DNA of 64,000 nt from a virus (Duplodnaviria > Heunggongvirae > Uroviricota > Caudoviricetes): IMG/VR virus record IMGVR_UViG_3300045988_149282, positions 33,636-97,635 of that record. The stretch is one strand, 5' to 3'. The notes under the pieces were generated by a model. The model was not told the DNA's origin. It saw only the letters and a list, made by a program, of their open reading frames with translations, and did no database searches. Of this stretch, positions 26,926 through 30,365 are shown one piece after another; the stretch's first letter is position 1; every line of letters begins with the position of its first letter. A program made the position numbers and the translations under genes.

Positions 26926-29034
26926 ATGTCTAAAAAACGTTCCATCAAAGAGGTTCAGGACTTCCGTGACAGTGTAAAACGAGTAGTCGCTCTCCTTTCA
27001 GGTAAAAACATCCCTGTTGCAGAACGAGGGGACGACGCTTATGTACGCTATAACGATGATGGAGAGCCAATTCTCGTAAACATCCCATCAATCCCGGATA
27101 ACGCAACACCGGCATTGATGAATGCTGTGCGCGGATTTCTCGATCATGAGGTTGCTCACATTTTGTTTACCGATATTCGTGTGTCCAACAAAATGAGAGA
27201 AAAAGGACGCGTTCCTTCCTGGTCGCTATGGAATGCCTTAGAAGACGTGTTCATCGAGCGAAAAATGGGTCAGGTCTTTAACGGAACAAGACGTAATCTG
27301 ATGGCAACTCAGCGCCTTATAATCGAAAAAGTCTTTAAACCAAAGGCTTCAGAGGCTATTGCTTATTGTGGCAAAGATCAGCGCGCGCTTTTTCTAAACT
27401 TCTTTCTCTGTCCGGTTGTAAGAGCCTGGGATGGCCAAGCACCGTTCGTAGATTTCATGGATGAATACTGGCCTGTCATTGAGAAACCAATTTCATTATT
27501 AAAAGAACATGGTATCGATGTGGCCGTGCGTAACATGTCTTGCACCGAGGATTGTGTAAAGGTGGCTGCGACCATAGCTAAGATCCTCAAAGACACTGAA
27601 AGTGAAAGCAAAGGTAAGGAGTCAGCTCCGGGAAAAACTTCCGATCCTTCAGACGCTGACCAGACGGATGCCTCTGGAGAAAACAATGAAGACAACGAAG
27701 ATCATGAGACACCCTCATCGTTAGATAATCACAAATCTATCGAATCAGAATCACATAGTAAGCACAAACATGATAATAACGACAGCGATGATTCAGATAA
27801 TTCTGAATCATCAGAAACAATATTCGATGATACAGAAAATGATAAAGAGGTATCAGATTCTGATGCTTCTGATAACGCGGCGTCAGAATCATTAACCGCT
27901 GACCACGAAAAAAGAAAAACGACAGAAGACGGCTCTTCAGATATCCCAACTCCGTCAAAAATGAGTCTGGAAGAGGCTTTAGAGGAGCTGGATAGCATAG
28001 AAGATGAAGTCGGAGGCATGACAGAAGATGCTCTATCCGAAACGATTAAAAGCGAGTTAACAGAAAGCTCGAAAAGCGAATACAGGCCATACAATCGCTC
28101 ATACGACTTCATCGGCTCGATTGATCAGGCAGAAGCCCATATCAAACGGCTTATTAAAACATTCTCCGATATTGATTTGGGAGGATATCCAATCAGCCGC
28201 TATCGCATCGTTCCTGAAGGCAACCAGCTCTTCGACAAATATATTGAAAAGCATCTTTCGTCAGGTGTTTCGTCGACGCTGGCAAAAGACCTGGAGCGAG
28301 CAATAGCAAGCAGAAACAGAGTTCAGTTTATACCGGGCCAGCGTCGGGGGCGCATTCATGGTTCTAGTATCTACAGATTAGCAATGAATGATGCTCGCGT
28401 GTTTCGTAAAAAAGAAGAATCTAAAGCCGTTAACGCCTGTGTTCAACAAGTGATTGATTTATCAGGTTCAATGAGTGGTATAACGATTAAACTGGCTCTT
28501 GCAAGTGCATATACCATCGCCGATGCCCTTGATCGAATAAATGTTCCCAACATTATCACCGGCTTCACTACATTTGGTAGTCATATGGCGGCAGGAGAAC
28601 TTAAGGCTGTCAAGTATGAGTTCTCTCGCTTTGAATCTTTAATGCTACCTATCATCAAAAATTGGAATGAAAAGGTAAATTCTCGCGAAGTTCGCTCACG
28701 TATGGGGTGCGTAGGCTACACATTCCCACTTCTTAATAACGTGGATGGTGAAAGCATAGCCAGCCTTGCATCGTTATTTTCCGGTCGCTTGGAGGACAGG
28801 AAGATCATGCTTGTTCTGAGTGATGGCGCGCCGTGGGCTGTTGGGAGAGGTTTTGACGCTCATTTGCGTTCAGTTGCGAAGCAAATTGAAACGCAGACTG
28901 ATATTGATTTGATGGCAATTGGCATCATGACTGACGCACCGGAGAGATTTTACTCAAATCATGCCCTGGTAACGAGCGTTGATAGTCTTGGTTCATCTGT
29001 AGTTACTGAACTATCTCGTATCATTTTAAAGTGA
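26926..29034 (+). CDS. CobT-like protein with C-terminal von Willebrand factor A (VWA) domain
   Basis: 702 aa; long acidic Ser/Asp/Glu-rich central region; MIDAS-type motif DLSGSMSG in C-terminal third; partner AAA+ gene downstream. Confidence 0.55.
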   Translation: MSKKRSIKEVQDFRDSVKRVVALLSGKNIPVAERGDDAYVRYNDDGEPILVNIPSIPDNATPALMNAVRGFLDHEVAHILFTDIRVSNKMREKGRVPSWSLWNALEDVFIERKMGQVFNGTRRNLMATQRLIIEKVFKPKASEAIAYCGKDQRALFLNFFLCPVVRAWDGQAPFVDFMDEYWPVIEKPISLLKEHGIDVAVRNMSCTEDCVKVAATIAKILKDTESESKGKESAPGKTSDPSDADQTDASGENNEDNEDHETPSSLDNHKSIESESHSKHKHDNNDSDDSDNSESSETIFDDTENDKEVSDSDASDNAASESLTADHEKRKTTEDGSSDIPTPSKMSLEEALEELDSIEDEVGGMTEDALSETIKSELTESSKSEYRPYNRSYDFIGSIDQAEAHIKRLIKTFSDIDLGGYPISRYRIVPEGNQLFDKYIEKHLSSGVSSTLAKDLERAIASRNRVQFIPGQRRGRIHGSSIYRLAMNDARVFRKKEESKAVNACVQQVIDLSGSMSGITIKLALASAYTIADALDRINVPNIITGFTTFGSHMAAGELKAVKYEFSRFESLMLPIIKNWNEKVNSREVRSRMGCVGYTFPLLNNVDGESIASLASLFSGRLEDRKIMLVLSDGAPWAVGRGFDAHLRSVAKQIETQTDIDLMAIGIMTDAPERFYSNHALVTSVDSLGSSVVTELSRIILK

Positions 29035-29129
29035 ACAAAACAGCCTTAATGATAAGTTACTACTTACGATAGATGATGATATATTTATATAAGAAGTTGA
29101 ACGCTCATTAGAGAACAAAGGAAAAACGC

Positions 29130-30365
29130 ATGACGACTACTGCACTGCAAAATGAAAAAAATCCTTCTGATTACCTTGTTTGCAAGTGGTGCGGCAAATC
29201 ATTTCACTATTTTAAGTCCCATGTAGCCAATGGTAATTGCGAGGGCATTCCTGAGTCAGTAAAAGATGCCGATCCTGACACCGTACTGAAAATGTACACA
29301 ACGCAGTTTCCAGATGAACCAACGCTATCGAAAAAGGCACTTGATGCAATTCAAGCTAAACGTGCCGAGCAAAAAAGCGAAATGGCCAAATCTTCTGGCT
29401 TGACCAGTAGCCCTGGCTACACAGGCACAGTTGAGTACAAGATGGATCTGGTCGCAGCTCACGAACTGCTAAACGTAACGGTGGAAGAACTCGGAACAAA
29501 ACGTGGGACGCCGCTCATGGTTAGCGTCAACGTCAATACGCCGTATCCAGAGTTCGTTCCCGAAGTGAAGAAAGGCTACGTATATGGCGACTTCGAACTG
29601 ATCAAAGATATTTTCATGATGCTTGAACTTGGCATACCTGGCTATTTGTGGGGTCATGCAGGAACAGGCAAATCGTCATTGCCTACACAGCTATGTGCTT
29701 TGCTCAATCGTCCGTTGATCCGTGCCCAACATACAGCATCAATGGAAGAGGCACATGTTACGGGGCAAATTCTGGCGCGTGATGGCTCTACGTATTTCGA
29801 ACCTGGCTTGCTTGCGCTCGCAATGAAGCATGGCTGGGTTTACCTCGCGGATGAATACGACTTTGCGTTTCCACAAATTCTTGGCGTGTATCAGCCAGTG
29901 CTGGAAGGTGAAGCGTTGGTCATCAAAGAGGCAACTCCAGAATGGCGTCGCATTACTCCGCATGAACGGTTTGCTTTCATTGGCACTGGCAACACGAACG
30001 GATCTGGTGATGAAACCGGCTTGTACCAGGGTACAAACATCCAGAACGCCGCGAACTTTTCGCGTTTTGGCATCGTTTCGAATGTGAAATACATGAGCAA
30101 AGACGCAGAGATCAACATGTTGACAAATGCAGGCATCGTGGATGAATACGCTGAAAAGATGGTTAAGTTTGCCGGTATCGTTCGCGATGGATACGAAGAA
30201 CACCTTATTAGTCAGCCAATTGGCCCTCGTGAACTTTTGTTGTCGGCCAAGATTGGAATGATGCGAGGCGACTTTGTGACAGGTATTGAGCGTTCTTTCA
30301 TTAACAAACTCCCTTCAGCTTCTGCACAAGCGGCTCGTGAAGTTGTTCAAAAAATATTTGGTTAA
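29130..30365 (+). CDS. CobS/MoxR-like AAA+ ATPase
   Basis: 411 aa; Walker A GHAGTGKSS, Walker B-like VYLADEYD; paired with upstream VWA protein. Confidence 0.6.
   Translation: MTTTALQNEKNPSDYLVCKWCGKSFHYFKSHVANGNCEGIPESVKDADPDTVLKMYTTQFPDEPTLSKKALDAIQAKRAEQKSEMAKSSGLTSSPGYTGTVEYKMDLVAAHELLNVTVEELGTKRGTPLMVSVNVNTPYPEFVPEVKKGYVYGDFELIKDIFMMLELGIPGYLWGHAGTGKSSLPTQLCALLNRPLIRAQHTASMEEAHVTGQILARDGSTYFEPGLLALAMKHGWVYLADEYDFAFPQILGVYQPVLEGEALVIKEATPEWRRITPHERFAFIGTGNTNGSGDETGLYQGTNIQNAANFSRFGIVSNVKYMSKDAEINMLTNAGIVDEYAEKMVKFAGIVRDGYEEHLISQPIGPRELLLSAKIGMMRGDFVTGIERSFINKLPSASAQAAREVVQKIFG

Follow-up and report, generated by a model that had tools for sequence, protein, structure and literature searches.

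A CobT/CobS-like gene pair at the head of the replication operon of an Escherichia coli phage-plasmid appears to be a MoxR-class AAA+/VWA system with a peptidase-like signature

What does a gene pair that resembles two subunits of the aerobic cobaltochelatase do in an element of E. coli, a host without the corrin pathway, when no large open reading frame of the stretch analysed resembles the chelatase's third subunit, CobN? We asked this of a 64,000-nt window, the whole stretch of DNA analysed here, which covers positions 33,636 to 97,635 of the virus record IMGVR_UViG_3300045988_149282 and whose own coordinates are used below. The pair and its puzzle are already known. The genes cobS and cobT of phages have been carried for about two decades as cobalamin "auxiliary metabolic genes" without test, and are counted so in virome surveys. 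The initial annotation of the window called the function unexplained, in agreement with the phage literature, where they are still classed as auxiliary metabolic genes for cobalamin whose role is uncertain; its remark that such pairs recur in phages without a cobalamin pathway is borne out by 494 phage records with a CobS-like gene and by the literature (PMC8651126). We find that the two proteins appear, from their domains and motifs, to be a MoxR-class AAA+ motor and a VWA adaptor with a MIDAS, an adhesion site that depends on a metal ion, belonging to a separate mobile-element clade that does not serve cobalamin synthesis.

The replicon itself classes as an SSU5-like E. coli phage-plasmid. 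Its closest records are Escherichia phage CMS-2020a (99.4% identity) and phage Cyrano (98.4%), the latter being plasmid pLF82 of E. coli LF82, and Salmonella phage SSU5 is 74.5% identical across the alignable region. A plaque-forming relative, phage PhiR41_1, is 97% identical, and E. coli K-12 MG1655 is given as its host. Of 5426 complete E. coli genomes, 219 have the same allele of the pair on plasmids and none has it on a chromosome; the label "phage-plasmid" given by the initial annotation is therefore correct. The two genes and their parts are arranged as follows.

26926-29034, plus strand: CobT-like adaptor gene, 702 residues (open reading frame (ORF) list, ATG start; Pfam; phrog_1576, E = 2.8e-300; profile, AlphaFold and Foldseek comparisons)
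26926-27615, plus strand: N-domain, residues 1-230, modelled by AlphaFold as a helix, a three-stranded sheet and a helical bundle; homologous to genuine CobT_N; Pfam CobT
27145-27159, plus strand: HEVAH, residues 74-78, a zincin HExxH motif on helix 62-81 (alignments)
27241-27258, plus strand: E106-D107...E111 within N-A-L-E-D-V-F-I-E-R, a candidate "glutamate helix" on helix 96-117 offering a candidate third metal ligand
27616-27960, plus strand: acidic, Ser/Thr-rich disordered linker, residues 231-345 (pLDDT, the predicted local distance difference test, and composition)
27961-29031, plus strand: C-terminal module, residues 346-702, the equivalent of the CobT "shaft" followed by the VWA domain (profile alignment, Foldseek)
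28456-28470, plus strand: MIDAS, D511-L-S513-G-S515 (alignments)
29130-30365, plus strand: CobS-like MoxR-class AAA+ ATPase gene, 411 residues (ORF list, ATG start; Pfam; phrog_249, E = 1e-106; AlphaFold, Foldseek)
29160-29384, plus strand: putative Ros/MucR-type zinc-finger module, residues 11-85, probable ligands C18, C21, H31 and C37
29553-30362, plus strand: AAA+ module, residues 142-411, with Walker A at 29652-29675 and Walker B at 29850-29855

The initial annotation had read the first gene as a 702-residue VWA protein with an acidic linker and a MIDAS motif, and the second as an adjacent 411-residue CobS/MoxR-like AAA+ ATPase, together resembling both CobS/CobT and MoxR-VWA systems, and each part of this description holds on closer analysis. 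Both ORFs are free of internal stops. In the adaptor, Pfam recognises the CobT N-domain over residues 9-294 (E = 1.7e-27) and the CobT_C VWA domain over residues 492-701 (E = 1.8e-81); the solved Brucella CobT is matched at E = 1e-16 with the single sequence and at 7.4e-64 with a profile, and the C-terminal module aligns with its residues 224-618 (profile E = 2.7e-62). The AlphaFold model (pLDDT 83.8; predicted template modelling score, pTM, 0.76) is disordered only in the linker, where pLDDT falls below 50 over residues 237-338 and whose composition (35 D/E and 32 S/T over residues 231-345) gives a net charge of -25. Foldseek with the whole model returned the MIDAS domains of NorD and midasin, matching the VWA part (E = 6e-9). 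The MIDAS string itself is VIDLSGSMSG at residues 509-518. Across an alignment of 60 diverse members (about 30% identity), D511, S513, S515, T548/T549 and D633 are invariant, as are R458 and G475 in the shaft-equivalent region, and DxSxS is present in all 146 full-length representative clusters, which share at most 50% identity and were used for the motif counts. The family is large: when 1.84 billion representatives were searched exhaustively with the CobT-like protein, 5036 clusters matched at E <= 1e-3, of which 515 reached E <= 1e-30.

The ATPase matches Pfam AAA_5 (dynein-type, E = 2.1e-15), and its residues 142-411 match residues 39-315 of the solved Brucella CobS (E = 1.1e-25). Walker A (GHAGTGKS, G175-S182), Walker B (D241-E242), sensor-1 N288, the arginine finger R312 and sensor-2 R367 are invariant in a set of 54 homologues (42-98% identity), and align with Brucella G71-S78, D141-E142, N186, R210 and R271. 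Its AlphaFold model (pLDDT 88.9, pTM 0.72) finds NorQ and CbbQ in Foldseek (E = 1.5e-15, TM-score 0.83-0.86), and Pfam CbbQ_C is found in 40 of the 54 family members. Structure prediction thus recovers both the VWA and the AAA+ fold, and a NorQ/CbbQ-type ATPase adjoined by a VWA gene with an intact MIDAS is the arrangement that defines MoxR-class systems. The nearest structural parallels are the NorQ-NorD and CbbQ-CbbO pairs, in which likewise an AAA+ ring and a MIDAS adaptor engage a client; there, unlike here, the clients are known (cNOR and Rubisco), and in the literature consulted neither a peptidase-like domain nor a zinc finger is reported on the NorD/CbbO adaptors.

Could the pair nevertheless act as a chelatase? 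The likeness to CobSTN of Brucella melitensis (PDB 9UJV-9UKL, EC 6.6.1.2) is extensive: a two-gene pair with the same AAA+ catalytic residues, and a CobT built of an N-domain (Pfam CobT), about 100 residues of acidic disordered linker, a shaft, and a VWA domain whose MIDAS reads DxSxS. D80 of that CobT, which contacts the small subdomain of CobS, corresponds to D73 of the window protein. The linker of genuine CobT is described as disordered over about 90 residues (10.64898/2026.07.21.739949). This homology in sequence and architecture is what favours the auxiliary-metabolic-gene hypothesis, by which viral CobS and CobT join a host CobN or ChlH-like subunit and raise cobalamin synthesis during infection; stated in PMC8651126 and repeated in PMC11705849 and PMC11288001, it is also the standard reading in the phage literature. 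The identity is only 26-29% for the ATPase and about 25-30% for the VWA protein, however, and both proteins score far below the NCBIfam equivalog cut-offs (CobT, TIGR01651, 67.6 bits against 759.05; CobS, TIGR01650, 86.6 against 558.55). In a simple neighbour-joining tree of AAA+ modules (301 columns), the phylogenetic placement that the initial annotation had proposed as a check, the window ATPase falls in a clade of its own outside genuine CobS, whose sample, like all genuine cobS-cobT loci compared here, is alphaproteobacterial only. Its identity is 26-29% to six genuine CobS, 28% to Vcrx089 of IncC plasmids, 28% to cyanophage CobS and 22% to CobS of phage ICP2. Gene order also differs, the window having CobT then CobS within a replication operon and the genuine loci cobS then cobT.

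The surroundings argue in the same direction. No CobN-like ORF is found among the six window ORFs of at least 450 residues (a tail fibre, a fibre with an endosialidase-chaperone domain, the CobT-like protein, DnaE, an SbcC/Rad50-like ATPase and NrdA), and E. coli is without the aerobic corrin pathway, its de novo B12 synthesis needing heterologous cobN, cobS and cobT among about 30 genes (PMC6249242). A proposed tie of phage CobS to B12-dependent class II ribonucleotide reductase (PMC8651126) is inapplicable here because the reductase of the element is class I and B12-independent. The pair lies in an early replication operon rather than among metabolic genes, homologues adjoin ssb-bet-exo on conjugative plasmids, and an HExxH motif conserved in the mobile-element clade is absent from genuine CobT. 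The auxiliary-metabolic-gene reading is already contradicted for the E. coli host, and we regard it as highly improbable for this element; that the pair is something other than a chelatase is, in our judgement, very probable.

Two observations on naming and on the cellular clade may be set beside this. The Cyrano record (L001, 9427-12866) labels the pair "dimethylbenzimidazole phosphoribosyltransferase" and "cobalamin synthetase", names that belong to the unrelated Salmonella-type CobT and CobS, and a 2024 phage paper describes a viral cobT with the same name collision. Bartonella genomes (L019; L049, 4887-7789) hold genuine-type cobS-cobT pairs. To our knowledge Bartonella is not known to make cobalamin, and these pairs hint that the cellular clade, too, may have a second role.

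What sets the mobile-element adaptors apart from genuine CobT lies in the N-domain, whose signature reads G-F-L-D-H-E-x-x-H ... N-x-x-E-D-x-x-I-E-R. In the 60-sequence alignment D73, E75, E106 and E111 are invariant and H74, H78 and D107 at least 90% conserved; all seven are invariant in a set of 20 N-domains (20/20). HExxH is kept in 143 of the 146 clusters, with 24-28 residues between the second His and the Glu motif in most of them, and in the model it lies on helix 62-81 with the downstream Glu on the next long helix, 96-117, which is the gluzincin layout. The motif recurs as HEAAH in the IncC VWA protein, HECYH in ICP2, and HEVGH both in a Rhizobium phage and in the cyanophage "peptidase". 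Six genuine CobT proteins, in contrast, read G-L-G-D-S-M-A-L-R at the HExxH site and D-A-V-E-Q-A-R-V-E-A at the Glu site, that is, S-M-A-L-R and E-Q in place of HExxH and E-D: the equivalents of E106 and E111 and the fold are kept, and both His, the catalytic Glu and D107 (replaced by Q) are gone. On this comparison the HExxH motif stands out as the clade-defining difference of the mobile-element clade from genuine CobT.

The modelled topology is compatible with such a site. According to a July 2026 preprint, the crystal structure of Brucella CobT_N has helix 1 followed by a three-stranded sheet and then helices 2-9, an arrangement similar to that of a peptidase M48C domain; within the chelatase, the small subdomain of CobS and CobN both dock on it (10.64898/2026.07.21.739949). 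The window N-domain model has its secondary-structure elements in the same order and a topology that fits this M48C-like, zincin-type fold, the whole-protein Foldseek search being swamped by the VWA domain. A Pfam scan of the 20 N-domains at E up to 1 returned PF06213 (CobT) in all 20 and no peptidase family, and a PDB search with the single N-domain sequence gave chance matches only (HLA, SOD). Given these motifs, a functional peptidase site has in our view about an even chance. The best non-CobT PDB match of the N-domain profile was AcrIIA26 (9zq6_B; E = 0.0055, residues 99-136 of the CobT-like protein), whose E49/D50, which bind the arginines of Cas9 that read the protospacer-adjacent motif, align with E106/D107. 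AcrIIA26 was considered as a homologue of the N-domain and left as a motif resemblance with homology unproven: the hhalign probability is only 25%, AcrIIA26 has no HExxH, and a single relative, of 92 residues, was retrievable.

The ATPase departs from genuine CobS in a comparable manner. About 140 residues precede its AAA+ module, about 100 more than in genuine CobS, and they contain what appears to be a Ros/MucR-type zinc finger. Across the 54 homologues C18 is invariant and C21, H26 and H31 are at least 90% conserved; the family consensus, KI.C.ICG...H.I..HL...HP...I..Y...FPDAP.LS..A, matches the ligand pattern C-x2-C-x9-H-x4-H, and in the subclade of the window the last finger His is replaced by an insertion with a Cys (C37). 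Pfam ROS_MUCR (PF05443) matches 19 of the 54 family members (best E = 1.7e-5), a PDB search with the N-terminal profile puts Ros87 (2JSP; E = 0.005) first, its Cys and His ligands matching in the alignment, and the region is modelled at pLDDT 82-94 with a beta-beta-alpha start. Among the sequences compared, the module is absent from genuine CobS, Vcrx089, cyanophage CobS and ICP2 CobS. The finger may serve as an anchor of the machine, whether on DNA or on a partner.

When would such a machine act? The genes around the pair give a first answer.

25978-26364, minus strand: helix-turn-helix (XRE-like) repressor gene, with a weak Pfam HTH_19 match; its orthologue is CYRAN_45, "putative repressor"; divergent from the operon of the pair
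26438-26411, minus strand: promoter-like site at the repressor gene
26615-26827, plus strand: orf70, small first gene of the rightward operon; phrog_2627, function not assigned; Cyrano orthologue CYRAN_46
26840-26872, plus strand: hairpin between orf70 and the CobT-like gene, read from the sequence, with a 9-bp stem (CTGCGCGAA...TTCGCGCAG) and no T-run
30368-30571, plus strand: orf67, a Cys-rich ORF of 67 residues; phrog_6337; overlaps the start of dnaE by 26 nt
30546-34064, plus strand: dnaE, DNA polymerase III alpha of the DnaE type (Pfam PHP, DNA_pol3_alpha, finger and HHH_6), downstream in the same transcription unit
34071-34095, plus strand: terminator-like hairpin with a 10-bp stem, closing the unit (sequence scan)

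The local order is thus integrase, repressor on the minus strand, orf70, CobT-like, CobS-like, orf67, DnaE and terminator-like hairpin, with a spacer of 95 nt between the two ORFs of the pair, which form the first large cistrons of a repressor-facing operon, ahead of DnaE, single-stranded DNA-binding protein (SSB), exonuclease and RecA. A plus-strand scan upstream of orf70 found no consensus sigma-70 site, total promoter matches being under the shuffled expectation, so the start of the operon is placed from layout and RNA-seq only. As for orf67, its conservation is 79-90% among SSU5 and Klebsiella relatives, and at about 33% it can still be recognised in elements of Photobacterium and Ectothiorhodospira, its position being taken by a sigma-70 region-2 protein in other lineages; it may or may not be part of the system of the pair.

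Expression of the Cyrano orthologues is informative. In RNA-seq of the LF82 lysogen in LB, in normalised units, CYRAN_47 reaches 7.8, CYRAN_48 6.7 and dnaE 10.1 against 96 for the repressor; within this stretch, CYRAN_45 is the gene that the lysogen expresses. Inside macrophages orf70 of LF82 rises about 90-fold, cobT/cobS about 6-fold and dnaE about 2-fold, a pattern that fits a single repressed early unit with polarity. The difference between orf70 and cobT/cobS suggests attenuation or RNA processing, with the hairpin 26840-26872 as a possible cause of the polarity and a possible attenuator. Since the pair is silent in the plasmid (lysogenic) state and heads an early operon, we place its action at the onset of lytic replication or at establishment, and consider action early in lytic development likely.

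These data also bear on the proposal that the pair serves plasmid maintenance or lysogeny (copy-number control, partition or lysogenic conversion) during plasmid replication. The element is a phage-plasmid, its pair adjoins integrase and repressor, and the allele is always on plasmids. The orthologues are nonetheless at background level in the LF82 lysogen, as is dnaE, and homologous pairs occur in strictly lytic phages, namely the T4-like cyanophages and ICP2, so that such a function seems quite improbable.

The association with replication genes extends well beyond the window. The layout of minus-strand repressor, small ORF, CobT, CobS and, further on, DnaE, gp32 SSB, 5'-3' exonuclease and RecA is found at 33-50% identity in Ectothiorhodospira, in Photobacterium and on an uncultured phage contig (L091-L093), and CobT-CobS lie just 5' of DnaE in Pseudomonas phage ZY21, Rhizobium phage RHph_N1_10 and Acinetobacter plasmid pWM99c-2. 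In the T4-like cyanophage S-SM1 the pair lies between gp46/gp47 and gp45/gp44/gp62, in ICP2 upstream of a helicase and PolA, and in IncC plasmids its members flank ssb-bet-exo. CobT-like relatives are found on about 1,800 plasmids, about 800 of those conjugative. Two features of the distant relatives are noted in passing: their DnaE (L091-L093) has a C-terminal uracil-DNA-glycosylase-like domain (PF03167), and one RecA gene, that of Ectothiorhodospira (L091, 17375-19188), contains an intein.

Does the pair, then, work for the replisome beside which it is encoded? As a chaperone of DNA metabolism with no host target, it would assemble, metalate or recycle a replication or recombination component of the element itself, with the polymerase PHP metal centre, ribonucleotide reductase or SSB/RecA filaments as candidate clients and NorQD, CbbQO and CobST as precedent. 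Placement strictly within replication/recombination modules in five unrelated element types, co-transcription with dnaE up to the terminator-like hairpin at 34071-34095, the metal-insertion or activase role of the nearest structural relatives (NorQ/NorD and CbbQ), and the presence of metalloenzymes that possibly need maturation (the DnaE PHP domain and class I ribonucleotide reductase) all speak for this. There is, however, no constant replication partner: the replisomes are of DnaE, PolB (cyanophage) or PolA (ICP2) type, and IncC plasmids have Bet/Exo and no polymerase, for which reason DnaE was downgraded as the specific client. Nor does a chaperone need a conserved HExxH. Sequence divergence is a further difficulty, as among close relatives the CobT-like protein is 57-62% identical, CobS 78-81% and DnaE 89-94%, which is unusual for a conserved replisome partner. 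We hold such a chaperone to be a possible but rather doubtful account of the pair, and the same grade applies to a component of the element's own replication machinery as the client.

The divergence was followed at the level of codons. Ratios of nonsynonymous to synonymous substitution rates (dN/dS), taken from close and intermediate pairs since dS against SSU5 is saturated, are 0.05-0.10 for cobS and 0.11-0.24 for cobT. Both genes are intact and under purifying selection, and neither is pseudogenised. Against SSU5, synonymous sites of cobT and cobS are saturated, with dN of 0.27 and 0.14 (0.78 in the linker), while the adjacent dnaE has dS of about 1.0 and dN of 0.038; this mosaic within 26926-34064 indicates allele exchange or a distinct evolutionary rate of the pair. 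Fast divergence of the CobT-like protein fits a host-interaction surface, and could equally reflect the low-complexity linker or linkage to a variable immunity region.

A host target is suggested by the IncC and SXT-R391 elements. In the multidrug-resistance IncC plasmid pNDM-US-2 the host-defence-evasion (hde) operon runs AAA ATPase (Vcrx089), hypothetical gene, ssb, bet, exo, DUF3150 and VWA. Vcrx089 is 30% identical to the window ATPase over 285 residues (E = 2e-27) and both match phrog_249 best; for the IncC VWA protein and the window adaptor, both of phrog_1576, the alignment spans the full length (E = 2e-22), and the IncC protein has HEAAH, NVLEDCRIER, a low-complexity linker and a MIDAS. 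As in the phage-plasmid, SSB, recombinase and exonuclease genes lie beside the system. Vcrx089 and Vcrx090 give evasion of type I restriction in Vibrio cholerae (PMC7498323), and deletion of vcrx089-090 raises EcoBI and EcoKI restriction in E. coli 424- and 906-fold, respectively (PMC11602122), the protection being known for pVCR94 and pKAZ3 (PMC7498323, PMC11602122). The IncC system differs in that Vcrx089 has no zinc finger, its ATPase and VWA genes have five other genes between them, and Vcrx090 is required, the AntiDefenseFinder definition of the system demanding both genes. No DUF3150 homologue was found in the window. Vcrx090 was also considered as a cryptic CobT-like adaptor and rejected (hhalign probability 0.05%, with no PDB or PHROG match).

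Two further systems offer partial parallels. The cyanophage "CobS" and "peptidase" (phrog_249 and phrog_459), a core pair of T4-like cyanophages, have the same order and the same replication/recombination setting, and the "peptidase", a label that PMC8651126 regards as a mis-annotation, carries HEVGH, NVLEDARIER and a DWSGS MIDAS. The ATPases are only about 28% identical, however, the adaptors resemble each other at motif level only, the cyanophage ATPase is without the Ros/MucR finger, and cyanophage hosts possess CobN, which keeps the B12 hypothesis possible there. By functional analogy only, ArdC of plasmid R388 and the DNA-dependent metalloproteases of the SPRTN/Wss1 type combine a gluzincin HExxH with a nucleic-acid-binding module, and ArdC is a mobile-element protein that counters HsdRMS; a sequence relationship is undetectable, and ArdC is a single polypeptide with neither AAA+ nor VWA domain. 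The natural off-switch of EcoKI is proteolysis by ClpXP, which acts on complexes bound to DNA (PMC11109961). As analogies, ArdC and EcoKI/ClpXP make an anti-restriction role plausible.

We propose, in outline, that the pair is expressed early and forms an AAA+/VWA/peptidase-like machine by which a protein client is remodelled or cleaved, with a host defence or DNA-bound factor as the leading candidate; we rate this overall reading an even proposition. Domain identities, motif conservation, synteny, selection and orthologue expression are shown by the data above, and from them the assembly, the proteolysis and the client are envisioned as follows. By homology to CobSTN, the presumably hexameric ATPase ring would grip the shaft just upstream of the VWA domain, the region with the invariant R458 and G475, and the adaptor N-domain would dock on the small subdomain of the AAA+ module by way of the stretch that surrounds the invariant D73. 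A client would then be held between the MIDAS face and the N-domain, in the place that CobN takes in the chelatase, and be remodelled by ATP-driven rotation or pulling. Because the N-domain retains an intact gluzincin HExxH...E site that genuine CobT has lost, the client would probably also be cleaved there, at lytic replication onset or establishment. As client we would guess at a host protein that obstructs or attacks the DNA of the element; a type I restriction complex is a candidate since Vcrx089, the homologue on IncC plasmids, acts against enzymes of this kind, and the alternative is some other DNA-bound host factor. Identification of the client as a host defence or DNA-bound factor is tentative and in our view less likely than not.

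Several results weigh against this proposal. The His pair is lost in two relatives with the same synteny, ZY21 (SEISK) and pWM99c-2 (QEVAK), so proteolysis is not universally essential. The window ATPase is no nearer to Vcrx089 (28%) than to genuine CobS (26-29%), and Vcrx090, which the IncC phenotype needs, has no homologue in the window (tblastn, nothing below E = 0.25). Transposon sequencing (TnSeq) of an IncC plasmid flagged only vcrx089-093, the downstream DUF3150 and VWA genes not being among those flagged (PMC7498323), and a role of the VWA protein in IncC anti-restriction is therefore unsupported. The protease activity of ArdC is dispensable for anti-restriction. A PADLOC scan of the window gave no meaningful match, a hit to DrmE (E = 0.0011, residues 340-533) being rejected as spurious, as it is weak and begins at the end of the low-complexity acidic linker. 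With respect to the finger, the window ATPase by itself falls under the Pfam ROS_MUCR threshold and the module is not basic, its net charge being -1 over residues 11-85 and the median over 23 homologues -1 as well; DNA binding by the finger is thus a hypothesis that charge does not support.

The rest of the element shows an extensive set of genes for nucleotide and DNA metabolism, including the large subunit of a class I ribonucleotide reductase that has an ATP cone (48364-50679), an SbcC/Rad50-like ATPase (45062-46978) and a glutaredoxin-like protein (24424-24669). On the minus strand, 22956-24284 encodes a 442-residue ORF with a hydrophobic N-terminus and no Pfam or PADLOC match, in an island of 34% GC against about 45% in the surroundings; in Cyrano the spot holds another gene, CYRAN_43, with very high expression, and the region looks like a cargo or moron hotspot. 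In pRHB27-C01_3, a 52-kb IncFIB plasmid of E. coli that seems to be an SSU5-like element in truncated form, orf70 and the cobT-like gene are separated by an IS3-family element (L094, 7674-8821), with a type I restriction S subunit gene close by.

In the open-access papers and bioRxiv preprints consulted, we found no prior description of HExxH as the clade-defining difference from genuine CobT, of a Ros/MucR-type finger on a CobS-like ATPase, or of the link between phage cobST, an immediate-early position in the replication operon and the IncC hde operon; an earlier account elsewhere is possible. The motifs are open to direct point-mutant tests at H74/E75/H78, D511/S513/S515, E242 and C18/C21. 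Among complete E. coli genomes, 4% have the allele on a plasmid. If the pair is indeed a remodelling or proteolytic machine acting at replication onset or establishment, metabolic readings of viral cobS and cobT would need revision, the mechanism of Vcrx089 anti-restriction would gain a structural frame in the CobSTN assembly with a live peptidase site, and a point of attack against the spread of phage-plasmids and of IncC plasmids would come into view. A bolder, and to us unlikely, extension is that the CobS/CobT-like pairs of mobile elements are one widespread family of ATP-driven, adaptor-guided proteases, with members in cyanophages (their "cobS"), SSU5-like phage-plasmids, ICP2, Nickievirus and Rhizobium phages and the IncC/SXT hde operon, in which MIDAS/VWA would capture a host defence or DNA-bound protein such as HsdR, the AAA+ ring would extract it and HExxH would cut it. 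Were that so, cyanophage "cobS" would belong to a machine for anti-defence or for clearing DNA and would not be a gene of vitamin B12 synthesis, and genuine CobT would be a descendant whose peptidase site has decayed into the docking surface for CobN.

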